DNA of 64,000 nt from Promethearchaeota archaeon (lineage in GTDB: Archaea; Asgardarchaeota; Lokiarchaeia; Sigyniarchaeales; SOKP01). The notes below the pieces were generated by a model that had not been told where the DNA came from, searched no databases, and saw only the letters and a program-made list of their open reading frames with translations. The position numbers were made by a program, and so were the translations under genes. Shown here piece by piece: positions 4 through 61,858 of this stretch (within the stretch, counting starts at the first letter, position 1; every line of letters begins with the position of its first letter). The DNA lies in contig JBHLON010000005.1 of the NCBI GenBank assembly GCA_048940445.1, positions 1 to 64,000 on the forward strand, in the 5' to 3' direction.

Positions 4-720
4 GTGAAAAATATAAATCCAAAAATTCATATACATGCATTTTCACCTCAGGAAATATATTACATCTCAAAATTATCTGGGAATTCAATTGAATATACTT
101 TAAGAACTTTAAAAGATCATGGTTTAGGTTCTATCCCTGGTACAGCAGCGGAGATTTTAGTAGACAAAATAAGAAGAATTATATGTCCAAACAAACTGAA
201 CACCTCTAAATGGATTGAGGTAATATCTATTGCTCACAAATTGGGTATTCCAACAACTTCGACAATGATGTACGGACATATTGAGGATTTAGAAGACAGG
301 ATCACTCATTTAGAAATAATAAGAAATATACAGAAAGAAACCCATGGTTTTACTGAATTCGTTCCCTTACCTTTTGTCAAAGAAAAACCATTGTTGTCGA
401 GATTAAAAGATTTTCCATTGAAGCCTAGTTATGGAATGGCAGACTTGAAGTTATTCAGTGTAGCACGGATATTTTTTAATAATTATATTGATAATATTCA
501 ATGTTCGTGGGTAAAATTAGGACCTAAATTTGCGCAAGTATCTTTGAATTATGGAGTTAACGATTTTTCAGGAACCTTAATGGAAGAAAATATTTCGAAA
601 AGTGCTGGCTCTGAATTTGGAGAATATTTATCTCCTGAAGAAATTATTAAAATTATAAAAGCTGCTGGCAAAAAACCAGCTCAAAGAGACACGTTATATA
701 ACATTATAAAATATTTCTAA
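4..720 (+). CDS. cofH: FO synthase subunit 2 (CofH/MqnC-like radical SAM), 5'-partial
   Basis: Motifs HIHAFSPQEI, SIPGTAAEIL, TMMYGHIE, NIQCSWVKLG, GTLMEENIS; the gene probably begins before the window. Confidence 0.85.
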   Translation: MKNINPKIHIHAFSPQEIYYISKLSGNSIEYTLRTLKDHGLGSIPGTAAEILVDKIRRIICPNKLNTSKWIEVISIAHKLGIPTTSTMMYGHIEDLEDRITHLEIIRNIQKETHGFTEFVPLPFVKEKPLLSRLKDFPLKPSYGMADLKLFSVARIFFNNYIDNIQCSWVKLGPKFAQVSLNYGVNDFSGTLMEENISKSAGSEFGEYLSPEEIIKIIKAAGKKPAQRDTLYNIIKYF

Positions 721-2579
721 GTTTTGCGATCTTGTAAGAAATTTAGAACATAACGTTGCGCTATTAAATCCGAACTAACTTTTCCCAAAACCTCACCATC
801 TTTAACAACGGGCATTGCTGATATTTGATATTGTTCTAGTTCTCGAATAATATCTAGAATTGTGAATTCCGGAGAGGTACTGATAACATCTTTAGTCATT
901 ATTTTCTCAAGTGATATATTCCGTACTCCTTCTGCAGTAGATTTGGTTATATCCCAATCCGTCACAACCCCAACAAGTTTATTGTTAGAGATTACAGCAA
1001 CAATTCCACTGTTTTTTTCAATCATTAAAGCTGCTGCTTCTTGAATACTACATCCCACCTCTATTGTTGGTATCGGTACCATTATATCTTTAGCTTTTCG
1101 TTCTCTTTCTTTCGCTGTTAATCTTTGAATACTAATTCTTTCTGCAGCAACACAGGGGAGAATATCTGGATTATTAGATAATATATCTACTAATTCAATC
1201 ATATTATGGCTAATCACATCCTTTCTATAGCCTTCACCAGCAATTAGACGACTCTTAGATAATTCTTCAAACTCTTTAGCATGTTCAAATAACCATTGAT
1301 CCACAGCTTTACGGTTTCCAAGAAATTTATCAGGTATTTGAAGATGATCGGGAGTTCTTATTAAATGTTCTTGAGCAGCGAAGATAACTCCGCCAGAGTT
1401 TACTAAATAATCATTTGCTATCATAACTCCTTTCTCTCGATATACAATTTGTTCCATACGTATCCGGGCGGCTTTTCTATTTGGATCTGGAGAATACGTA
1501 TTCGCACCCTCTACTATTACCGCCCAATTTCCCATTCTCTCTACTAACATTGAAGGATTCTCTGATTGCCAAACACCTAGATAATTGAATATGGGGGCCG
1601 CTGGTATCAAACAAAAAGCATTTTCAAGCAATAAATTGTTAGGATTTGTAGAAAATTTAGTTGGATGTTTATATCCTTCTGGAAGGATCTTTCTTTTAAA
1701 ATATATATTGGTAACGAGCCCTTTTTCTTTCCATAAATCAAATAGATTTTTAACTGGCAACCCTAATTCATTATAGAGATATCCTTCAAGATCGCTAATT
1801 CCTGTAATCTTGACTAAAGGCATTCTTTCTTTTAATATGCGTGAAGTATGAGCACCAACAGCTCCAAACCCTTGAATCAAAACTGTGAGTTGTTCTAATT
1901 TAGGAATTTCTAAATTCGCGAAATGAGGAAGCATACGTAACCTAGGCATAATTTCTAATAATGTTTGTAATGCTGTCACTACTCCTCCAGCAGCAGCTCC
2001 AAGTTCGTCTATGCGATTCCCTCCCATATCTGCGGGTTTTGATACAGCACTATCTAACCCGTTTTCAATAGCTATAGTCTTCATATCAGAATCATTAGTA
2101 CCTACATCAGGACCTGGAACGTAAATGCTTTTATAACGTCGAATTAGGTGAGCAAATCCTTTGATTATTTGATCGTGTATTTCTGGAGTTATATCTCTTT
2201 CAGCTACTATACCAGATTTACCACCCCCATATGGAAGGTTAGCAGCTGCATTTTTAAGAGTCATTCCTCGAGCTAAATTATAGATATCTGAAGGTATTAT
2301 ATCTGGAAGCATACGTATCCCTCCCATCGAGGGGGTACCCATTGAAAGAGAATCAACTACTAAATAACCACCAATTTCCAACTGGGATTTTTCATCCCAC
2401 ATGCAACTTACAAGTTTAGGACCAACTTTATCTGCAATAATTCCTAAACGTGATAAAAGGTGGACATCAAGAGTACTGAATTCAAGATAACACATTCCAT
2501 CCTCTTTCTTAAGTCGAGTTTTAAGGGTTGCTTCAGGTAAATTTTCCTTTAAAAACACATTCATTCTTTTTGGAATCAT
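717..2579 (-). CDS. Glu/Leu/Phe/Val dehydrogenase fused to a C-terminal CBS pair
   Basis: GGIRM, MTLKNAAANLPYGGGKSGI, PGPDVGT, IQGFGAVG, EGAN, NSGGV; the last ~120 aa form tandem CBS domains. Confidence 0.85.
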   Translation of the reverse strand: MIPKRMNVFLKENLPEATLKTRLKKEDGMCYLEFSTLDVHLLSRLGIIADKVGPKLVSCMWDEKSQLEIGGYLVVDSLSMGTPSMGGIRMLPDIIPSDIYNLARGMTLKNAAANLPYGGGKSGIVAERDITPEIHDQIIKGFAHLIRRYKSIYVPGPDVGTNDSDMKTIAIENGLDSAVSKPADMGGNRIDELGAAAGGVVTALQTLLEIMPRLRMLPHFANLEIPKLEQLTVLIQGFGAVGAHTSRILKERMPLVKITGISDLEGYLYNELGLPVKNLFDLWKEKGLVTNIYFKRKILPEGYKHPTKFSTNPNNLLLENAFCLIPAAPIFNYLGVWQSENPSMLVERMGNWAVIVEGANTYSPDPNRKAARIRMEQIVYREKGVMIANDYLVNSGGVIFAAQEHLIRTPDHLQIPDKFLGNRKAVDQWLFEHAKEFEELSKSRLIAGEGYRKDVISHNMIELVDILSNNPDILPCVAAERISIQRLTAKERERKAKDIMVPIPTIEVGCSIQEAAALMIEKNSGIVAVISNNKLVGVVTDWDITKSTAEGVRNISLEKIMTKDVISTSPEFTILDIIRELEQYQISAMPVVKDGEVLGKVSSDLIAQRYVLNFLQDRKT

Positions 2580-2775
2580 ATTTATATCAATTCAAAATGA
2601 AGAATATTAATCGTTGGGTATGTTTAGTAATATGAGTCTTTCTAATTTAAAAGTGTCTGGTTTAATTTGTTTCACATTCAAAACTCATAAGTTAATAAAT
2701 ATCAATTAAAGCCGTATTTAATAGAACTAAATTATTGGAATTTTAGCAAAAAAAGATGATGGAGCAGTTATTTGT

Positions 2776-4356
2776 TTAATCATCTTGAATATAAGCTTTT
2801 CCAGAGTTTAAGCATAATTCTGCTTTAGTTAGTTCTCTTCCAAGATAGTTTATATGATATAAATTATTCGTCAAATTAGACTCAATTACTTTTTTGCTAA
2901 TACTTTCTGCATCCTCCCCCAGTAAAGTATAAAGTAGTTTATCTTCGTTTGTATAGAATTGTAGATAAATTTTCCTAGAATAATGGTTAATATAAATTCT
3001 AAAATATCCCTTTTCATCCGGGTTATATTCTTGATTTATGCCCTCTAAAATGATTGCTTTCTCTTGATCAATAACAGGAGCTTTTTGAGATGTTTTCTTT
3101 TTTGCTTTGAAGATTTCTATACCTAAATTTATAGGTGGTGATTTTCTAAATTTTGCAAGGTAGTTTAATTTAATACTATCTTTTAATTCTCTAACTCCTC
3201 CCATTAATTTAGTACTATGTTCAACTGTGAAAACGATTCCTACATCTAATTCAATCGCAATGCTGGCTAAGAGTCCATTAATCCCCACAGAATCAATATC
3301 CATCAATTCTACAACGTTTGATACTCCAAAGAACATTGGAGCTTCAAATTTTTTATAATTATCTTCAGTAACTTTCTTTTTATAGATAAAGTAGGTTTCT
3401 AAAGATGGACAAATTCCGGGAGAAATGGGTGTTTCTAGTAGAGGATCCGCAATAATCTTACTAAACCCATAAGTTTGAAGTTCATGAGTTAATTTGAATA
3501 AGTTATTGACTCTTGTGGCTGGGTCTTTTGGAAAGTAAGCAGTTTTAATATTTGTTGGTAAGATCACTATCGGTATATCTTTTGGCAAATCAAGACAATC
3601 CTTATAATTCCCAGCATCAAGACTAAGAATCATATCCACCCCTTCCTCAACTGCTGCAAAAATCTCATTCTTTACCATTGAATCTACACTTAATAAAATA
3701 TCAAACTTTTTTCTGATAAGTCTAATGGCTTGTTTTATTCTGTTCGGATTTGGTTTATTTGCAACACATCCAATATCTACTATATCAGCACCAGACTCAA
3801 TATAATATTTTACTTTTTTAAGTATGTTCTTATCACTTTTTTCAGTACAATTGACGATTTCAGCAATCACAGGAGGGGGCAGATTACGACCTAATATAAG
3901 ATCTGATTTATCTTCATTAATATAAAAGGTGTGATTAGAAATATTATTTCTAGCAATTTTATATTGCTCTTTTACATATTCTCTAAACTCTTTCTCACCA
4001 GAGGCTTCAATTAGTCTATTAGCTGGAACCGTATTTGATAAATTAACAGTTTCTAAACTTTTCAATATTAAAGGTAAATCTGAAGCGAATTCGGGCCCTT
4101 TTCGTATTTTTATTCTGTACTTTTCTTCTAAGGGAGTAGTATCCCATTGTACAAATCCAGGAAGTAGAATTAAATCAAAATTAGTAATACTGATTTTATT
4201 AATAATTTCATGAACTAATTCTTCTGATATAAATGCTGAAACTGAAATTTGGGCTTTTAAAACTTCAATTTCATAATTTTTTATTGATTGGACAATTTTT
4301 TTGATGATTTGATAACTGTTTAAACCAGTAATTATTAATATTTTAATGTTTATCAC
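2776..4356 (-). CDS. Dihydropteroate synthase-like protein (archaeal methanopterin pathway) with C-terminal DUF4346-like domain
   Basis: Pterin-binding barrel (GADIVDIG, LSVDS, IIADPLL, FFGVSNVVELMDIDSVGIN); C-terminal DEKGYFRI...HINYLGREL. Confidence 0.8.
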   Translation of the reverse strand: MINIKILIITGLNSYQIIKKIVQSIKNYEIEVLKAQISVSAFISEELVHEIINKISITNFDLILLPGFVQWDTTPLEEKYRIKIRKGPEFASDLPLILKSLETVNLSNTVPANRLIEASGEKEFREYVKEQYKIARNNISNHTFYINEDKSDLILGRNLPPPVIAEIVNCTEKSDKNILKKVKYYIESGADIVDIGCVANKPNPNRIKQAIRLIRKKFDILLSVDSMVKNEIFAAVEEGVDMILSLDAGNYKDCLDLPKDIPIVILPTNIKTAYFPKDPATRVNNLFKLTHELQTYGFSKIIADPLLETPISPGICPSLETYFIYKKKVTEDNYKKFEAPMFFGVSNVVELMDIDSVGINGLLASIAIELDVGIVFTVEHSTKLMGGVRELKDSIKLNYLAKFRKSPPINLGIEIFKAKKKTSQKAPVIDQEKAIILEGINQEYNPDEKGYFRIYINHYSRKIYLQFYTNEDKLLYTLLGEDAESISKKVIESNLTNNLYHINYLGRELTKAELCLNSGKAYIQDD

Positions 4357-5465
4357 TCAATGAATTTCTTTTTATCAAATGGAATGTATATATCATCTAA
4401 TATTGATCCTGATGCCTCTTCTATCCTTAAATTATCTATTATCGGTTTAAATTTTCCTCCTAATAATCCATTAGCTATGAAAGCTGCACCTTGTGCTGCC
4501 TGTTTTGATAAGTGGCTATAGGATTTCATTAGTTTTACTGGAGCGACATCATTAAGATTTCGTATTATCTTATCTTTTAGATATTTTAAATCTGTGCCAC
4601 GACCAGCGATAAGAACTTCTTTTATCTTAGATTTTCTAGAGAAAGATGAAGATATTGCATAAACAGATTTCTTTACACTAGATAGATATGCATTAAGTGC
4701 AACATTAGTTTGCTCATCTCTTTCAGCTAACAACGAGATTTCTTTTAAACTTAAATCTTTATATCCCGCGATATAGGATACTCCACCCTTATAGATATTT
4801 TTTTTCTTAATATTTTTAATTAAATATGCCAATTCTCCATCAAGACTCCCGCATGCTCTGAATCCCATAATATTAGAACCTCCAATTCCATCAATAATTT
4901 GACCATTTTCTATGGCTAAAACAGCAGTAAATCCGTAACCAATTTCAACCATAATAAAGTTAGTACTTTCAGGGGGTACTTCAAATCGTTCCATCTGATC
5001 TCTAATCCCTGTAACTGCTGTACATAATTTATCTGCTGTACCCATATCAATTTTATTTATTTTCCTATACCGTGGAATAGTCGGTAGATGTTTGACTCCT
5101 GGAACGATTACTCCAGGAATTTTCTCAATTTTTATTAAACGTAATACCTCTCCTAATCCTATCAACTTATTTTTTTCTTCTTTATCAAATTTTAAAAGGG
5201 TAAAAAAAAGGTCTTTTTCAGTTAAGTCAGATACTTTTTTTAGAGGGAGCCCAAAACCACTCGGAGCAACCATTAAATCTATATTTTCTACAGATTTTAC
5301 CAATGATATTACTTTTTGAGGTTCTTTAATCAATTCCTTTGTGGGAATTGATGAGTCTAATATAATATCGTTACCTTCTAAACCAAAGAAATCCCAACTA
5401 AGTGTTCCTGGATCTACTCCTAAAGTTATAAGATTATTCTCATTTCTCATTCTATCAAAAATCAT
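4353..5465 (-). CDS. DUF1464 family protein (ASKHA/acetate-kinase-like fold)
   Basis: GVDPGTLSWD, APSGFGLP, NKIDMGTADK, GSLDGELAY, AAQGAAFIANGLLGG. Confidence 0.8.
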   Translation of the reverse strand: MIFDRMRNENNLITLGVDPGTLSWDFFGLEGNDIILDSSIPTKELIKEPQKVISLVKSVENIDLMVAPSGFGLPLKKVSDLTEKDLFFTLLKFDKEEKNKLIGLGEVLRLIKIEKIPGVIVPGVKHLPTIPRYRKINKIDMGTADKLCTAVTGIRDQMERFEVPPESTNFIMVEIGYGFTAVLAIENGQIIDGIGGSNIMGFRACGSLDGELAYLIKNIKKKNIYKGGVSYIAGYKDLSLKEISLLAERDEQTNVALNAYLSSVKKSVYAISSSFSRKSKIKEVLIAGRGTDLKYLKDKIIRNLNDVAPVKLMKSYSHLSKQAAQGAAFIANGLLGGKFKPIIDNLRIEEASGSILDDIYIPFDKKKFIE

Positions 5466-5612
5466 TTATTTTTGACATTAACTATATATGAATGTACAAT
5501 AATTCTTTTTATATTTACTAGTTTACAACTATAAATTAATAGGAGTACATCTATATTTTTAGAAATATAAAAGATTTGATTCTCAAAATTTAAATCAAAT
5601 GTAATTAAATTA

Positions 5613-6335
5613 ATGTCGAATCTCATGACAACAAATTTTCAAAAGTTAGGAATTAAAGGAGGTTGCTTATATGAAATATTAGCGACAACTTTTTCTAAAA
5701 AAAATGAGGAGATAATACCAAATGCATCATGTATGGGAATTAGAATAAAGGACAACAACACTATACATATTATTCCCTATCCTGACACAAATACTTATAA
5801 AAATTTAAAAGAAAATGGTCTGATTTGTATCAATTTTGTGGAGAATGTCTATATATATGCGTTAGCAGCATTAAAGGGACCTTATCTTTCTGAGAAGTAT
5901 ATAGTTTTTCCAATGAAATATTACAATTACTATAATTTAAATTACAATTATGAATTAACTAGAAGAACAATCAAAATTCCATTTATCAAATCTGCTTGGG
6001 CAATATTAATTGGTGAAGTAATTAATGAAATGCATTTTACTAAACAAGATGATTTTGGAGAAATTAAACTAACCAATTTTATCTTAAACAACATTCTAAT
6101 TAATAAGTTTAAAGAATCACACAAATTATTTAATAGAGCTGAAAATTTAGTGTTAGAAACTATTATTATGGTTACCAGATTGAAAACAGCTTTTGAAACA
6201 AAAAAAGAGAATTTAGTGATGAAATACCAAAGAAAAATTGAAGAAACTATTAAGAGTATAAAAAGATTTGGAAAAAATCCAGATAACCTTAAGAGTGTGT
6301 ATCTTATAGAGGATTATCTCCAAAATTTAAAGTAA
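5613..6335 (+). CDS. DUF447 family protein
   Basis: YEILATT, PNASCMGI, TNTYKN, FNRAENLVLE; lies within the methanopterin gene cluster. Confidence 0.7.
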   Translation: MSNLMTTNFQKLGIKGGCLYEILATTFSKKNEEIIPNASCMGIRIKDNNTIHIIPYPDTNTYKNLKENGLICINFVENVYIYALAALKGPYLSEKYIVFPMKYYNYYNLNYNYELTRRTIKIPFIKSAWAILIGEVINEMHFTKQDDFGEIKLTNFILNNILINKFKESHKLFNRAENLVLETIIMVTRLKTAFETKKENLVMKYQRKIEETIKSIKRFGKNPDNLKSVYLIEDYLQNLK

Positions 6336-6340
6336 ATATT

Positions 6341-6727
6341 TTATTCTATTTTCTCAATGTACATAAGGGGATATTTTAAATCTTCAATCCATTCTACTTT
6401 TGCTAATATATTTACTGATTCATATTGAACCTCAATTTGAGCCTTAATTACTTTACCCGATATTTCATCATAGGCAAATTCATTTGATTTATCTCCAATG
6501 ATTTTATCTTTATCAAGATTTATTTTTACTCTTTTAACAAAAGGTTGACATGATATAGAAGCTTCTATCCCTCTTTCAATAGAATTGATTGTATCTTCAT
6601 TTGAAGATATAGGAATTCCACATAGAATATGATAGAGTGCTCCAAGCTTTATTCCTATTTCAAAACAAGCCCTCTCTCTTTCAGAAAGATCTATAGGAAA
6701 AAATTTATTATAATTATTTGTTGACAT
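6341..6727 (-). CDS. mptD: Archaeal dihydroneopterin aldolase
   Basis: ERACFEIGIKLGALYH, SISCQPFV, YPLMYI. Confidence 0.85.
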   Translation of the reverse strand: MSTNNYNKFFPIDLSERERACFEIGIKLGALYHILCGIPISSNEDTINSIERGIEASISCQPFVKRVKINLDKDKIIGDKSNEFAYDEISGKVIKAQIEVQYESVNILAKVEWIEDLKYPLMYIEKIE

Positions 6728-7740
6728 TAAATATCACTTAAATATTCAATTTTAGCTCCACAATTATTAGGTTTACAGATATAGATATGACCTCCAATAT
6801 CTTTTAAATACATCTGTATCTCTTTTAACAAATCATTAGCTTCAGGTTCAGATTCGGTTATTCCAATGACACTGGGTCCAAAAGATGACATTCCATAGGC
6901 TTTCAAGCCATAATTTTCAAAAAACTTTAAAAGATATTTTACAATATCATTTTGAAGGCTTATTTCAATTTTCTTAAAACCTATGCTCTGGATTCTTTTT
7001 AGACCTTCTCCAAAACACTTTAAATCTCGCTTTATTATACCAGGAATAACTTTCATTAATACTTGGTGTGAAACTTCATTAACTTCTTCTTTTGGTATAG
7101 GAGCATAATTTTGAAAAATGCTAACTTCATCATCTCCATATGCGCCTTTACCCACATTTGGAATTACGAGAACAAATCTCCAATTCGTTGGAATATCATG
7201 TCTAAAAAGAGTTAGGGCTGGTTCAGCATTTTTTGAAGCAGAAGAGGGTAAAAAAGTTTCCTTTTCTTTTCCTTGACCGAAATCATGTCCAGCATCTAAA
7301 ATAAAACCACCTCTTTCAAATCCTCGCCACCCAATACCTGATGTTCCGCCTCTTTCTACAATCTTGGTCAAGTCTTCTAACTTGATATTCTTAATATTCT
7401 TTAGAAGAGTGATAGCACGGGCAATTGCTAAGGATAGTTGGGTTTTTGAACCTAAACCTACATGACTAGGATAATATCTTTTAAGGTGGAAATGAAAGTT
7501 TTTATTACTAATATTAAATACTTTAAAAACTTTTGAAGCTTTTTCATTTATAACTTCTATAGATTCACGATAATATTTATGAGCTTCAATCTTAAATTCC
7601 TGTGCATTATTAGATGCCTCAAAAATAACATTAGGTCTATCTAACATTAAACCAATACCCCCATCCACCCTACCAGTGTATCCATTTTCATCTATTAGTG
7701 AAAGATGTATCCTACACGGGGCTGTAATTCTAATTTTCAT
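6727..7740 (-). CDS. mptG: beta-ribofuranosylaminobenzene 5'-phosphate (RFAP) synthase, GHMP family
   Basis: PCRIHLSLID, GRVDGGIG, HVGLGSKTQ, RGGTSGIG, GGFILDAGH, GMSSFGP. Confidence 0.9.
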   Translation of the reverse strand: MKIRITAPCRIHLSLIDENGYTGRVDGGIGLMLDRPNVIFEASNNAQEFKIEAHKYYRESIEVINEKASKVFKVFNISNKNFHFHLKRYYPSHVGLGSKTQLSLAIARAITLLKNIKNIKLEDLTKIVERGGTSGIGWRGFERGGFILDAGHDFGQGKEKETFLPSSASKNAEPALTLFRHDIPTNWRFVLVIPNVGKGAYGDDEVSIFQNYAPIPKEEVNEVSHQVLMKVIPGIIKRDLKCFGEGLKRIQSIGFKKIEISLQNDIVKYLLKFFENYGLKAYGMSSFGPSVIGITESEPEANDLLKEIQMYLKDIGGHIYICKPNNCGAKIEYLSDI

Positions 7741-7909
7741 GTTCAGTTAATTAAGATTAAGAGCTATTAAGTAGAATTTTCAAAATAATTTAAATATAAT
7801 ATATATATTTAAAGCAAGATTATTCTCTAAAATTTCAGTTAAACAAATTATTATAAAATAAAGAAGCATATATCATTATTTGTAATCTTTAGATTGGTTT
7901 TTTTTAACA

Positions 7910-8329
7910 TTGTTGTCAAGACTAGATAAATTCATAGCGTACGAGAATAAAAGGTGTCTAAATATCGTTAAAGTCTTTATTGTAGAGGATGACTCATCCT
8001 TGAGAGTTCTTTATGAAAAGGTGTTGAGTTTGAGTGGATATGAGGTAATTGGATTAGCTAAAGATGGGGAAGAAGCAGTCAATATGTATAAAGATTTTTT
8101 AGAAAAACCCGATGTAATTATTATGGACCACAGAATGCCAATTAAAAATGGAATTGAAGCAACCAAGGAAATATTCGATAATTCAAGTAAAGAGAAACCA
8201 AAAATTATTTTTGCTAGTGCAGATCAGACAATTAAGGATTTAGCTCTCACTATTGGAGTGACAAGCTTTAAAAGTAAACCATTTACTCTTGAAAACCTTT
8301 TTAATAATATTGAAAAGGCTATAAGCTAA
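7910..8329 (+). CDS. Single-domain response regulator (receiver); true start probably later
   Basis: VFIVEDD, DVIIMDHRMPIKNG, FASAD, KPF. Confidence 0.85.
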   Translation: MLSRLDKFIAYENKRCLNIVKVFIVEDDSSLRVLYEKVLSLSGYEVIGLAKDGEEAVNMYKDFLEKPDVIIMDHRMPIKNGIEATKEIFDNSSKEKPKIIFASADQTIKDLALTIGVTSFKSKPFTLENLFNNIEKAIS

Positions 8330-8429
8330 TTTTTCAGTTTGAAAATTTTTGAATTTGGAATACTCATAACATTATTATAATATAAAGATTTTTTAAGATT
8401 GAAATTTTGTTTAATCGATTATAATAAGA

Positions 8430-9845
8430 GTGAAAAATTTGAGTGACCTAGAGGGTTTAACAAGGAATTTAATAAAAAAAGGAGATTCAGATGGAAAAAT
8501 TCTTCAACGTTTAGTCCAAGAATATTTTGATTTTAAAGAAATAGAGAAAGAATCTGCACTAAGGAATGCAAAAGCGATCCTAGAAGAATGCAAAAAAAGT
8601 GATTTAAAATCTGTATCTAATAGATTCATAAAAAATTTATTGAAAGTAAATAATTCAGGAGTTACCGTTGGTACTCAAGGTGTTGGTTGTCGAGGAGCAG
8701 GAGATTTTTTTGTTCATAAATTGATTGCAGAATTATCAGAAACAAAAGCTAAAGCATATTTATCTCCTAAATCTCTAGATGACGCTGGAGCAGTAAGGAT
8801 TTCTGATGTTGAAGATTTAAAAACCAATGAAGATCTCATAATCGTATCTAAGATGGAAGGTATTCATAGCCGCTTGAGTGATTTTCCATTTTTGTGTGGC
8901 TTTCATGTAATTTTATGCAGTAGGTTTGCATAAAGCGTATCGAGGGCTGCACTTAGGGATTTATACGTTAAGGGTTCTATTCCTATTTCTATAATGGTTG
9001 ATGCTCACCTAGGAGATGATGCTGATGTTGGAAAACTATTCGATTTTATGGCAGGTGTGTCAGCAATCTCAGAGTTAGCTCAAGTTCCTATAACGGCGGG
9101 GTCAACCTTAAGAATTGGAGGAGATATGGTTATCGGAGAGAGGTTCGTTGGAGGTCTTGCCGCAATTGGGATAGCATCGAAAAAACTCCTTGCTAGAAGG
9201 CAAATTCAACCTGGTGATAAAATTCTCATGACTGAAGGAGCAGGAGGTGGTACTATCACTACTACAGCAATTTATTCGGGAAATCATGAGATAATAAAAG
9301 AAACTTTAAACATTAAGTTTTTAGAAGCTTCAAAAATCATTTTAAATTCGCCCTATCTTTCTAAAATTCGAGCGATGTGTGATGTCACTAACGGGGGTTT
9401 AAGAGGAGATCTTTACGAAATAAATTACGAAGCTGGATGCGGAGTAACGATCTATGAAGAAAAAGTAAGAAGTTTAGTAAACAAAAATGTATTATCCTTA
9501 TTAGACTCAGTACATGTTGATTATTTAGGAGTATCATTAGATGCATTATTGATATATTGTTCCCAGGAAGTCGTTGGTGATATCATTCTAGATCTCGAAA
9601 AAAATCACATTAAATGTGCCGAGATTGGATACGTGGATGATTCAAAAACAGTTTCAATGATTTCTCAAGATGAAAAACAAAACATTTTACCACGTTTTAG
9701 GGAATCAGCTTATACAAAAATAAAGCAAGAAGTAGGTGAAGAAACTCCTAAGAATATAGAACAAATGGAAATAAGATTGAAAGAAGCAGCAAATGAAGCT
9801 TTTGAAAAGCGAAACAAAATAATTGAATATTTGTCTCATAATTAG
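8430..9845 (+). CDS. AIR synthase-related protein (PurM/HypE/SelD superfamily), spliced as join(8430..8910,8941..9845), ~461 aa
   Basis: The two ORF-track pieces are the N- and C-halves of one family (GVGCRGAGDF, LDDAG, GIHSRLSDFPFL; DAHLGDDADV, GSTLRIGGD, DVTNGG). Removing 8911-8940 gives GFHVTRAALRDLYVKG. Confidence 0.88.
8911..8940 (+). other. 30-nt BHB intron in an mRNA (AIR synthase-related gene)
   Basis: Outer stem GGCUUUC/GAGGGCU, central helix AUGU/GCGU, bulges AA|U and AU|C, inner stem UUUAUGCA/UGCAUAAA; contains an in-frame TAA. Confidence 0.88.
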
Positions 9846-44773: not shown

Positions 44774-45448
44774 ATGAAAATTGGGGATGATTCAATTAAT
44801 CCTACCAAAATATTGTGTCTAGGGAGGAATTATTTAGAACATATTAAAGAAACAAAAGCACCAATACCTAAAGAACCAGTGTTTTTTGTTAAGACAATAA
44901 ATACGTTAATCACGGATAATAAGCCGATTATTTACCCGAAAATATTGTATCAAAATAACGAGTTTAACAGAGTAGATCATGAAGTCGAACTTGCATTTGT
45001 TATTAAGAAGAAATGTAAACACATTCCAGCGCAATATGCATATGATTATATAAAAGGTTATACCATACTTCTTGATCTAACTGCTCGAAATATGCAAGTA
45101 GCTGATAGAAACATTAATCTTCCTTGGTATAGGAGCAAGAATTTTGATACATTCGCTCCAATAGGACCTGTAATAAAAGAAGTTAATGAAATAAAAGCTC
45201 CTCATAATCTTAATATTGAGTTAAAGGTGAATGGAGAAACCAAACAGTCCTCTAACACTAAATATATGATTTTTAAGATTCCTGTAATTTTGGAATATCT
45301 TTCAAAGTTTGTCACTTTAGAAAAAGATGATATTGTTGCTACAGGGACTCCAAGTGGAATATCACCAATTTATCCTGGAGATACCATTGAAGCTTCGATT
45401 GAAAATATAGGAACCATTACCCACACGGTGATTTTAGAAGAAATATAG
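44774..45448 (+). CDS. Fumarylacetoacetate hydrolase family protein (tandem paralog)
   Basis: CLGRNY, DHEVEL, DLTAR, KNFDTF, ATGTPSG. Confidence 0.9.
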   Translation: MKIGDDSINPTKILCLGRNYLEHIKETKAPIPKEPVFFVKTINTLITDNKPIIYPKILYQNNEFNRVDHEVELAFVIKKKCKHIPAQYAYDYIKGYTILLDLTARNMQVADRNINLPWYRSKNFDTFAPIGPVIKEVNEIKAPHNLNIELKVNGETKQSSNTKYMIFKIPVILEYLSKFVTLEKDDIVATGTPSGISPIYPGDTIEASIENIGTITHTVILEEI

Positions 45449-45518
45449 ACAATTTTCACCTTGGAATTTCTAAAAATAAGGCTTACATTTATTTATGTAA
45501 ATAAATAACAATTTCATA

Positions 45519-45719
45519 ATGGAAGAAATAACTGAAGAGATTAAAAAGGAGATTTTTAGATTAATCGCCATTCCTGGGCTCGAAGTTAGGGACATTCCCA
45601 AACAGATAAATGCATCATTTAATACTCATTTTAATTATGACCAAATTATGGAGTTTTTATCTGATGAGTTTTTCAAAAAAAACCTAGATTATGGGCGAAG
45701 ATTATGTTGTAGATTTTAA
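45519..45719 (+). CDS. Small hypothetical protein
   Basis: 66-aa ATG-started ORF filling the gap; no family recognised. Confidence 0.5.
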   Translation: MEEITEEIKKEIFRLIAIPGLEVRDIPKQINASFNTHFNYDQIMEFLSDEFFKKNLDYGRRLCCRF

Positions 45720-45977
45720 CCTCTAAAAATTTATGTCCCTTAATTAATAAAAATTCTGAATAAAGAAAAGAATCGTAATAAAATTTTTTAATATTGCTAT
45801 ATTTTTAATCATACTAAGTACAAAATATACTTCTAAAGGACTTAGGACGCAAATTAAAGCGGTTTCGATATAAAATATATATCGGGATGAAAAAGATCGA
45901 TAAAGAATTTAATTGAACGTTCTTAATCTTTTGAGTATATTTTAACATAAAATTATTTAGCAAAACGGTGAAATTAA

Positions 45978-46542
45978 TTGAGTACTAAAGGAAGATTGGT
46001 TGTAAAGGCTCTTGTGACTGGTGGGAGAGTTATAATTTAACATTCGTTTAGAATAAAACCCCGAATGCGTCAGGAGGGCCACCCATAGGTCCAGCTGTAG
46101 GTCCAACAGGCATAAAATTAAAATCTTTTCGATTTTTTGTGCAAATATAAAAGATGTCGTTGATGCGGTCAATGAAAAAACGATGATCTTCAAGGGCCTA
46201 ACAGTTCCGGTTAGGATTGAATGTGATCCTGAGACTAAACAATTTGAAATTTTTGTTGAAACTCCAAGTACTGCCTCTCTTCTCCTGAAGGAACTGGGCG
46301 TTGAGAAAGGGATTACTTCAGCTTCAGAATCAAAGATTGGTAATCTAACATTGGAACAGGTAATGGCTGTTGCAACCGCTAAGAAAGAGAAATTTTTGGA
46401 CAAAACTTATAGAACTGCTGTGAAAACTGTATTAGGTACAGCGTTATCAATAGGAGCTACCGTTGAAGGAGAAGATCCACGAGTAATTCAAAAAAAAATT
46501 GAAAATGGGGAATTTGATGATAGAATTAAGGGTGAGATGTAA
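45978..46542 (+). CDS. rpl11: 50S ribosomal protein uL11, spliced as join(45978..46027,46066..46115,46145..46542), 165 aa
   Basis: GGTGA SD then TTG. Spliced product [56 protein letters not shown]... has the uL11 N-terminus; first gene of the L11-L1-L10-L12 cluster. Confidence 0.93.
46028..46065 (+). other. rpl11 intron 1 (38 nt, BHB/BHL-like)
   Basis: Helix UGGG/CCCG, cuts AG|A and AA|U, inner stem GUUAUAAUUUAA/UUAGAAUAAAAC, outer UGAC/GUCA; in-frame TAA at 46038-46040. Confidence 0.88.
46116..46144 (+). other. rpl11 intron 2 (29 nt, BHB-like)
   Basis: Helix GCAU/GUGC, cuts AA|A and AA|A, inner stem AAAAUC/GAUUUU; removal gives GINIKDVV. Confidence 0.88.
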
Positions 46543-46545
46543 GAC

Positions 46546-47274
46546 ATGAAGTTAGATGATAAAATGTTAAGAAAATCAGTTAGCGCTGCTATTAAATTTT
46601 CAGTAAAGCAAAAAAAAGGGTCTAAAGATAAAGTTAGAAACTTTGATGAGAGTATAGATTTCATAGTAAATCTTAAAGATCTAAATTTAAATGACCCAAA
46701 ACAAAGAATTGATAAAGAAATCCTTTTACCCAACAATGTTCTAATCTCTGAAAAGCCAAATGTATGTGTGGTTGCTTCAGATGAAATTCTCTTGGAGGCA
46801 AAAAATTTAGGATTAGATACTTTGGATGAGGAGGGTCTTGTAAGATTAAATAATGAAGAGAAAAAGTATAAAAAAAAATTTGTTAAAAAGTATGATTTTT
46901 TTATCGTTGAAGACAAAATGATGCCAAATCTAGCTCGATATCTTGCTAGGTTTTTAGGACCAGTTGGTAAAATGCCAAAACCTTTCCCTAGTGGATATGG
47001 AATAATATCAAGTCCAGAAGATTTAAAAGTTGCAGTAGATCGGTATTTAAAAGCAATTCGAATTCAACTAAAGAAACAACCTCAGATACAAGTTAAAATC
47101 GGAAAGAAATCAATGGAAAAGAAAGAGGTTATTGAGAATTTAAAAACTGTTGTTGATTATATTGCAGAACAAATGCCCCATAAATATAACAACATTAAAT
47201 CCATGTATCTTAAAACAACAATGGGCCATCCTGTTAAAATTGATGAACAGCATTTAAAATCAATAGAGGTGTAA
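46546..47274 (+). CDS. rpl1: 50S ribosomal protein uL1
   Basis: RNFDESIDFIVNLK, LGPVGKMPKP, YLKTTMGHP. Confidence 0.96.
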   Translation: MKLDDKMLRKSVSAAIKFSVKQKKGSKDKVRNFDESIDFIVNLKDLNLNDPKQRIDKEILLPNNVLISEKPNVCVVASDEILLEAKNLGLDTLDEEGLVRLNNEEKKYKKKFVKKYDFFIVEDKMMPNLARYLARFLGPVGKMPKPFPSGYGIISSPEDLKVAVDRYLKAIRIQLKKQPQIQVKIGKKSMEKKEVIENLKTVVDYIAEQMPHKYNNIKSMYLKTTMGHPVKIDEQHLKSIEV

Positions 47275-50985: not shown

Positions 50986-51087
50986 CGCAGACAGAGGGAT
51001 TTGAACCCTCGAGTGCTTTCACACACCAGCTTATTAGGTAAGTGCTTCTCTCCAAGCTGGCGCCGTACCAGGCTAGGCTATGTCTGC
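50986..51087 (-). tRNA. tRNA-Ser(GGA) with an 18-nt intron at 37/38 (51032-51049)
   Basis: Acceptor GCAGACA/TGTCTGC plus G, anticodon stem CCAGC/GCTGG, long variable arm, GGTTCAAATCC; BHB helix TTGG/CTAA. Confidence 0.93.
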
Positions 51088-59341: not shown

Positions 59342-59520
59342 GGGCCATTAGCTCAGACTGGTTAACAAGGTTTTAAAAGCTTGGTCAAAAAGCGCAGGTC
59401 TTATAAATGACCGACGGACATACATCAAATTAAATTGTCTGTTATTAGTAAAAACCTGAGTCTCATTGTGTTTCCATCAATGAGTGAAGGAAATCCGGGG
59501 TTCAAATCCCCGATGGCCCA
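59342..59520 (+). tRNA. tRNA-Ile(UAU) with three introns: 59365-59389 (D arm), 59407-59453 (38/39), 59461-59492 (45/46)
   Basis: Acceptor GGGCCAT/ATGGCCC plus A; spliced 75-nt cloverleaf with anticodon arm CAGGT-CTTATAA-ACCTG and T arm CGGGG-TTCAAAT-CCCCG; intron helices TGGT/GTCA, TTAT/GTAA, CCTG/AAGG. Confidence 0.88.
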
Positions 59521-61701: not shown

Positions 61702-61858
61702 TGGCGGCCCTTGAGGAGATTTTCTAAGATTGGTTAATTTCCAACCATTATCGAACTCCTATCCCTCCGCAGGATAACTAGGTTTGAAGCCTAGCGTCAG
61801 AGACCACTTATCGTTGGAGATCGATATGATCTCAAAACAATTCCGACCGTCAAGGGCC
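61702..61858 (-). tRNA. selC: tRNA-Sec(UCA) with two introns: 61808-61841 (D arm) and 61720-61749 (T loop)
   Basis: 9-bp acceptor GGCCCTTGA/TCAAGGGCC plus GCCA, 7-bp D stem GTCGGAG-TGGT-CTCTGAC after splicing, anticodon arm CTAGG-CTTCAAA-CCTAG, long variable arm, 4-bp T stem GGAG/CTCC (9/4 fold). Confidence 0.93.

Follow-up and report, generated by a model that had tools for sequence, protein, structure and literature searches.

With the exception of cbf5, protein-coding genes of archaea are regarded as free of introns. The cbf5 pre-mRNA contains a bulge-helix-bulge (BHB) intron in Desulfurococcales and Sulfolobales, with cDNA support (PMC2738675; Yokobori 2009; Watanabe 2002; Yoshinari 2006). 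HVO_1309 of Haloferax volcanii has another BHB intron in its 5' UTR (Schwarz 2020, PMC7714728), and the same study gives cbf5 as the sole other archaeal mRNA case. Non-canonical and multiple introns have been described in tRNA genes of Asgard archaea and Thermoproteales (bioRxiv 10.64898/2026.10.13.758758; PMC5829648). The first of these reports is devoted to tRNA genes only and mentions neither “mRNA” nor “cbf5”. A Crenarchaea-specific loop and its lysine allow the splicing endonuclease EndA to cleave relaxed motifs, and Asgard EndAs are (alpha-beta)2 enzymes with the CSL/L1 loop (PMC5829648). In eukaryotes, the XBP1 and HAC1 mRNAs are spliced by IRE1 and RtcB (or Trl1) (in part from PMC13149111). 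In the searchable literature, to which most subscription journals do not belong, we found no description of a BHB intron within an Asgard coding sequence.

The window analysed here comprises 64,000 nts of a Promethearchaeota archaeon (contig JBHLON010000005.1, positions 1 to 64,000). In this window the ribosomal protein gene rpl11, on the forward strand at 45978-46542, is interrupted twice. Gene callers and the ORF track only deliver a 119-aa uL11 (46183-46542) that lacks the N-terminus, and an identity look-up in the protein collection gave no identical record for this product. The missing part lies upstream, as an earlier note on this DNA had proposed, in two 50-nt pieces separated by inserts of 38 and 29 nts. 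Exon 1 (45978-46027) has a TTG start, comprises codons 1-16 and two bases of Ser17, and its product agrees with the N-terminus of intact relatives. The TTG is preceded by an SD-like GGTGA, read from the sequence at 45967-45971; the nearest relative (L002) has the same motif and an ATG at the equivalent position. Intron 1 (site 1, 46028-46065) interrupts the Ser17 codon, and its retention leads to a frameshift and a stop. Exon 2 (46066-46115) encodes a conserved stretch of 16 residues and in relatives contains two further intron sites, after CDS nts 71 and 83. It is followed by intron 2 (site 4, 46116-46144), which interrupts the Asn34 codon and shifts the frame if retained, and by exon 3 (46145-46542) with codons 34-165. 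Neither of the intron lengths nor their sum is divisible by three. Joining the three exons generates a CDS of 498 nts, i.e., 165 aa and a stop; this is the protein, peptide included, that the note had derived by cutting past the second bulge nucleotide. Alignment to an intron-less relative, one of the checks it had suggested, gives 84 % identity over 165 residues with zero gaps. A tblastn search for an intact rpl11 elsewhere found no second copy in the genome, which is 93 % complete with 2.8 % contamination. Downstream on the same strand follow the operon genes for uL1 (46546-47274), uL10/P0 (47279-48166) and P1/L12 (48233-48526), all uninterrupted; their identities come from sequence reading and the standard archaeal gene order rather than from a family search.

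At each insert, the exon bases -6 to -3 pair with four bases near the insert 3' end, and this central helix is flanked by bulges of 3 nts that are cut after their second base. In motif 1 (46022-46066) the central helix is made up of UGGG (46022-46025) and CCCG (46060-46063), with bulges at 46026-46028 and 46064-46066, an inner helix of 3 bp and a weak outer helix. In motif 2 (46110-46145) GCAU (46110-46113) pairs with GUGC (46139-46142); the bulges lie at 46114-46116 and 46143-46145, and both the inner and the outer helix are imperfect. These are the two helices that had been named beforehand, and all four central pairs form in both introns. For intron 1 the BHB register alone yields a Ser as in most intact relatives, while neighbouring registers give Asn or Arg; for intron 2 the same peptide is obtained from four registers. 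A canonical BHB has both flanking helices stacked on the bulges, which is the case for neither of the two introns. The outer (exon-exon) helix at these sites has a mean of only 1.7 out of 3 pairs in homologues. Introns 1 and 2 are relaxed HBh'-type motifs. The predicted minimum-energy fold of intron 1 keeps the central helix and leaves the bulges open. That of intron 2 pairs the 5' bulge, the BHB-compatible fold being 2.8 kcal/mol less stable; among the homologues of intron 2, the BHB-compatible fold is the energy minimum in 11 of 20.

The nearest rpl11 loci belong to Promethearchaeota/Promethearchaeia (Lokiarchaeia) MAGs, which confirms the Asgard host that had been suspected. A spliced alignment guided by protein sequence, in which RNA shape played no part, was applied to 76 usable related rpl11 genes: 37 are intact and 39 hold 52 inserts, counts that overstate the number of independent events as the genomes are kin. 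The 38 other insert-bearing genomes come from a one-per-species collection, and their inserts are homologous but diverged. Up to three inserts occur per gene, at four sites with cuts after CDS nts 50, 71, 83 and 100. All 52 break the frame, including 14 in-frame ones that do so via stop codons, and the spliced peptides agree with those of intact genes. A complete central helix forms, at a single register for each site, in 14 of 14, 5 of 12, 6 of 6 and 20 of 20 inserts (sites 1-4, respectively), and far fewer central-helix pairs form in other registers. Site 2 has on average 3.4 of 4 central pairs and a near-perfect outer helix, and in relatives the motif at site 3 is a canonical BHB. In total, 45 of the 52 inserts contain a complete 4-bp helix, compared to a mean of 1.5 and a maximum of 8 for shuffled introns; BHB pairing at the rpl11 inserts is therefore not due to chance. 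Moreover, at site 1 a synonymous Gly wobble base, T (n=10) or A (n=4), covaries with its partner base in the intron. The exon context WGGGAG/TG of site 1 (the slash marks the cut) is present in 14/14 carriers versus 3/62 non-carriers, and GCATAA/A of site 4 in 20/20 carriers versus 9/56 non-carriers. Thus wobble bases of the exon helix are frozen or covary only where the intron is present.

The genome encodes two EndA paralogues and one intact RtcB, and an ORF adjoining rtcB looks archease-like from sequence reading. The 201-aa EndA paralogue finds its best match in the alpha subunit of Aeropyrum pernix (E 3e-38) and keeps the equivalents of K44 (the loop Lys), Y125 and H133 as well as the SVRKK Lys, with the catalytic Tyr/His/Lys triad retained. 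The 205-aa paralogue is devoid of the catalytic His, as expected of a beta subunit. These features support a predicted alpha/beta pair with the (alpha-beta)2 architecture, equipped with a broad-specificity loop.

Several tRNA genes of the window are likewise interrupted. The tRNA-Sec gene (TCA; 61702-61858, reverse strand) was missed by ARAGORN. It contains inserts of 34 nts (61841-61808) and 30 nts (61749-61720), the latter with 3 of 4 central pairs; once both are removed the gene obtains an ARAGORN score of 120, and its presence suggests that selenocysteine is used in this genome. The tRNA-Ile gene (TAT; 59342-59520, forward strand) has a 47-nt anticodon-loop intron (59407-59453), an insert of about 18 nts near 59472-59489 and probably a third insert in the D-arm. 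A tRNA-Ser-like gene with a short anticodon-loop intron (50986-51087, reverse strand) was revealed by an Rfam match and missed by ARAGORN on the window. Genome-wide, ARAGORN detects just 13 tRNAs. Together with the intron-bearing tRNAs this implies that EndA must process many relaxed substrates.

Comparable introns exist in other protein genes of this organism. A motif-blind spliced alignment of all ORFs of a related reference genome (G061; CP070805.1, 2.27 Mb) to the host genome uncovered 12 frame-breaking inserts with well-conserved flanks. They measure 21-38 nts, all end in AA or AT, and 11 of the 12 have the full central helix where 1.7 would be expected. Two are those of rpl11 and two are in the gene directly upstream of rtcB. 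The remaining ones are in the genes for DnaG, MetRS (inside the HIGH-motif region), a GHMP/mevalonate kinase, Lsm, a Ras-like GTPase, a low-molecular-weight phosphatase and a GH38 mannosidase, and in an AIR-synthase-related gene. The latter lies in the window on the forward strand: ORFs 8430-8933 and 8994-9845 are one gene, and the G061 orthologue is uninterrupted exactly at the intron position (8911-8940). This 30-nt intron contains an in-frame stop and is canonical, with 4/4 central, 3/3 inner and 3/3 outer pairs. The gene upstream of rtcB encodes 256 aa and has BHB introns of 34 and 30 nts (G000 C94:59617-62450, L083, rtcB strand). At this locus the archease-like gene converges on rtcB, and the gene order is kept, intron-free, in G061. 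A thirteenth intron, 30 nts long, is located in purA; it is common to G061, where it has the same site and a different interior, and it passes the control scan too. A de novo genome scan for BHB motifs combined with ORF joining gave 3807 cases versus 3797 and 4026 in controls, about equal after filters, and homology filtering left only the known cases and purA. A 30-nt intron with a strong hairpin in a small Zn-ribbon gene (G000 C134 109550-109579, forward strand) is probable. This brings the total to at least 13 BHB-type introns in 11 genes, i.e., at least 10 protein genes besides rpl11, a lower bound obtained with G061 as the single reference. When G061 served as the query target in the reverse comparison, three more introns appeared that are absent from the host genome. 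The earlier note had inferred a multi-exon, EndA-spliced mRNA; geometry, covariation and the enzyme genes now speak for it, but the note understated its scope. None of the 13 introns is located beyond the first 40 % of its gene, and 12 are within the first 71 codons, a 5' bias to be read knowing that short first exons are harder to detect.

How else could the rpl11 sequence be explained? The 5' part of the gene might be dead, with a 119-aa uL11 made from the internal ATG at 46183 and neutral inserts in a decaying region. This ORF indeed begins with ATG and contains the whole rRNA-binding domain, and many forms of 118-128 aa are present in databases. Moreover, uL11 is dispensable in several bacteria, so that essentiality of rpl11 alone would be a weak argument. 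However, of the codons that differ within positions 9-33, 9 % are non-synonymous among site-4 carriers versus 8 % among intact genes; the 5' exons of carriers thus do not decay, and purifying selection acts on them as it does on intact genes. The SD-like motif precedes the upstream TTG and inspection of the sequence gave none before 46183, residue 47 is other than Met in 18 of 63 full-length relatives, and BHB pairing is kept and covaries in the inserts. Inserts of the same shape also split the single-copy genes dnaG, metG and mevalonate kinase. A truncated uL11 is accordingly very unlikely, and the many Lokiarchaeia uL11 entries of 118-146 aa in the protein collection, with an N-terminal domain absent or corrupted, are consistent with gene callers missing 5' exons. 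Equally improbable is translational bypassing of the T4 gene 60 type, in which the mRNA would stay unspliced and the ribosome would hop across each of its hairpins. Hairpins with early stop codons, as this recoding would have it, are indeed formed by the inserts, and one terminator-like stem was seen, on the opposite strand and at about chance level. Both BHB junctions nevertheless fall within codons, and take-off and landing codons that match each other are missing: hops at codon boundaries of intron 1 give Asn or Arg/Val instead of the conserved Ser, and neither Ser17 nor the Gly-Ile-Asn-Ile stretch is recovered with any matched codon pair. What is conserved is the pairing of the intron 3' end with the upstream exon and the unpaired 3-nt bulges, i.e., the geometry of EndA, and the same elements are found in tRNAs, which cannot be bypassed.

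A nuclease or ligase other than the tRNA enzymes EndA and RtcB could be invoked for splicing, given that the two motifs are of the relaxed kind and that intron 2 has a marginal fold. Yet the host EndA has the loop that permits relaxed substrates and the EndA cut rule is obeyed at all four sites, which leaves little room for another enzyme. Group I or II introns, self-splicing or homing, are recognised by a large catalytic RNA core and/or an encoded endonuclease or reverse transcriptase, and they were rejected: with 21-38 nts and no ORF, the inserts are too short and too AU-rich for self-splicing, and no Rfam match over rpl11 was obtained at E<=1. An assembly or binning artefact, finally, has a negligible probability. 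Every sequence used is a metagenome assembly and mosaic tracts could in principle be chimeras. Still, a Logan contig of run SRR34261206, identical at 1065 of 1071 positions (99.4 %) and with one substitution in intron 1, carries both inserts; this second, independent assembly implies that they exist in DNA and answers the artefact check that had been proposed. Diverged homologues of the inserts in the 38 other genomes, and mosaic tracts that in several cases are internal with 92-99 % identity on either side, argue in the same direction. Spliced copies of rpl11 were sought by exact-pattern scans of metagenome contigs, for spliced and unspliced exon 2 and for the spliced site-1 signature, and none was found. 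Short contigs with a full-length uL11 close to intron-bearing alleles do exist; they were rejected as spliced copies, being intron-less genomic alleles with different synonymous codons, and none among them is a spliced copy of an intron-bearing allele. Taken together, it is highly likely that both rpl11 inserts are mRNA introns spliced by EndA and RtcB/archease, with EndA cleavage, RtcB ligation and expression of the spliced protein being what we infer from the DNA.

In such a process, the rpl11-rpl1-rplP0-rpl12 transcript would fold locally at each insert into a relaxed BHB, the (alpha-beta)2 EndA would cut each 3-nt bulge behind its second base, and the exons would be joined by RtcB together with archease. 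Two rounds of splicing should give the message for the full 165-aa uL11. Translation from the true start of an rpl11 mRNA that retains an intron would meet a stop or a frameshift, and splicing would presumably have to outrun or precede ribosome loading.

Where do these introns occur? Among 151 Asgard genomes, a split L11 N-terminal domain is found only in the host's family, two other genera of which have rpl11 inserts that contain stops. Outside this family, 115 of 116 matches show an undivided domain. The lone exception is a partial L11_N match in another family (G087 C39:19510-19599), due to a contig end or an intron. On an rpl11 tree made from the sequence downstream of the introns, sites 1-4 need 10, 10, 3 and 16 changes for 13, 11, 6 and 17 carriers, respectively; with so many changes per carrier the introns are patchily distributed. 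NCBI titles that assign some of the loci to Hod-, Thor-, Odin- or Hermodarchaeota were not trusted, as these loci interleave with Promethearchaeota at 75-82 % identity. Records such as L008, L015, L023, L033 and L065 bear titles of other Asgard phyla or even of an actinobacterium while their rpl11-rpl1 nests among Promethearchaeota, and they are probably mislabelled or misbinned.

The introns sit in very conserved motifs near 5' ends and turn over fast. Where the intron sets of two close genomes are different, divergence is 19.5 % over the 5' exon tract and 6.2 % downstream; where the sets are the same, the values are 8.2 % and 6.5 %. Several pairs show a divergent patch of a few hundred bases between flanks of 92-99 % identity, and a patch of this type also distinguishes two genomes that are both without introns. 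This is most simply read as an exchange of the rpl11 5' end, together with flanking exon and promoter DNA, by homologous recombination that would carry the introns along. Copying of introns from site to site is unsupported: introns within a site have local similarity scores of 14-17 versus 6-7 after shuffling, and across sites barely any similarity exists (6-8 versus 6-7). Precise loss via reverse-transcribed mRNA is disfavoured as the main turnover route, since changes in presence or absence come with many nearby synonymous changes. Some precise loss is possible; the carrier exon signature is kept by 3 of 62 and 9 of 56 intact genes at sites 1 and 4. Rather than conserved regulators, the introns seem to be near-neutral passengers that are tolerated. 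In a close relative with 92 % uL11 identity (L235), rpl11 introns are present at sites 1 and 2 and absent from site 4. In this relative (408-9700) about 9 kb of extra genes are located between an FAA-hydrolase/small ORF pair and rpl11, compared to window positions 45448-45978, and the upstream region of rpl11 has the look of a variable locus.

That splicing by EndA and RtcB is both a routine, genome-wide step of mRNA maturation in the host's Lokiarchaeia family and a control point is, as a whole, rather doubtful. The routine half, with core genes such as those for uL11, DnaG, MetRS, mevalonate kinase, PurA, Lsm and a Ras-like GTPase being concerned, is likely on its own. Since the sets of introns change fast, the regulatory half is speculative. 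Weak hints toward the combined reading are the two-intron gene directly upstream of rtcB, the position of rpl11 as the first gene of its operon and the 5' bias of the 13 introns. If true, the activity of EndA or RtcB would gate the synthesis of ribosomal and replication proteins, translation would have to wait for splicing, and an archaeal counterpart of IRE1/RtcB mRNA splicing would exist.

A close relative of eukaryotes thus very probably splices mRNAs with tRNA-splicing enzymes, as judged from genomic data. In the lineage nearest to eukaryotes, a family whose genomes each contain twelve or more introns removed by enzymes, and whose core genes give multi-exon mRNAs, would then show that intron-containing protein genes can spread in the absence of a spliceosome or a nucleus. 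Since the phenomenon is seen in one family only, it points to a late, lineage-specific spread, and no link to the origin of spliceosomal introns is claimed. It becomes testable how splicing proceeds while translation is coupled, for what reason 5' ends and conserved motifs are crowded with introns, and by which routes these are gained and lost. In practical terms, gene callers shorten intron-bearing genes, which affects marker sets, completeness estimates, metabolic reconstructions and phylogenomics.

How, then, do the rpl11 introns relate to the described systems? Like the cbf5 intron, they are short inserts in a coding sequence with an unconventional BHB cut between the second and third bulge base, and they share with it a hetero-oligomeric (alpha-beta)2 EndA, a variable intron interior and lineage-specific absence. 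However, the cbf5 system amounts to a single intron at a single site of a single gene; this intron is old, mostly vertically inherited and proven by cDNA. Here, the rpl11 mRNA has two introns, or as many as three in relatives, 50 nts of the gene contain four sites, and at least 13 introns are distributed over 11 genes of one genome, with fast turnover and recombination tracts; the host is an Asgard archaeon and the introns are predicted from DNA. The host gene and lineage also led us to reject the rpl11 intron as an orthologue of the cbf5 intron; both belong to the same mechanism class. HVO_1309 provides another mRNA substrate of the tRNA splicing endonuclease, but its intron lies outside the coding sequence, leaves the frame unbroken and is associated with a different EndA type. 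The introns in tRNA genes of Asgard archaea and Thermoproteales resemble those of rpl11 in size, AU-rich hairpin, relaxed BHB, repeated gains and enzyme, the rpl11 introns lying in contrast in a protein-coding gene. XBP1 and HAC1 offer a spliceosome-independent parallel, i.e., a short frame-shifting mRNA intron removed by protein enzymes and a tRNA ligase. In their case, however, the nuclease is IRE1 rather than EndA, stem-loops replace the BHB and splicing is a regulated single-target switch; no homology between the introns is claimed. In structure and enzymes the rpl11 introns are those of the relaxed archaeal BHB class, and their novelty is one of scale: the number of introns per mRNA, the number of genes and the speed of turnover.
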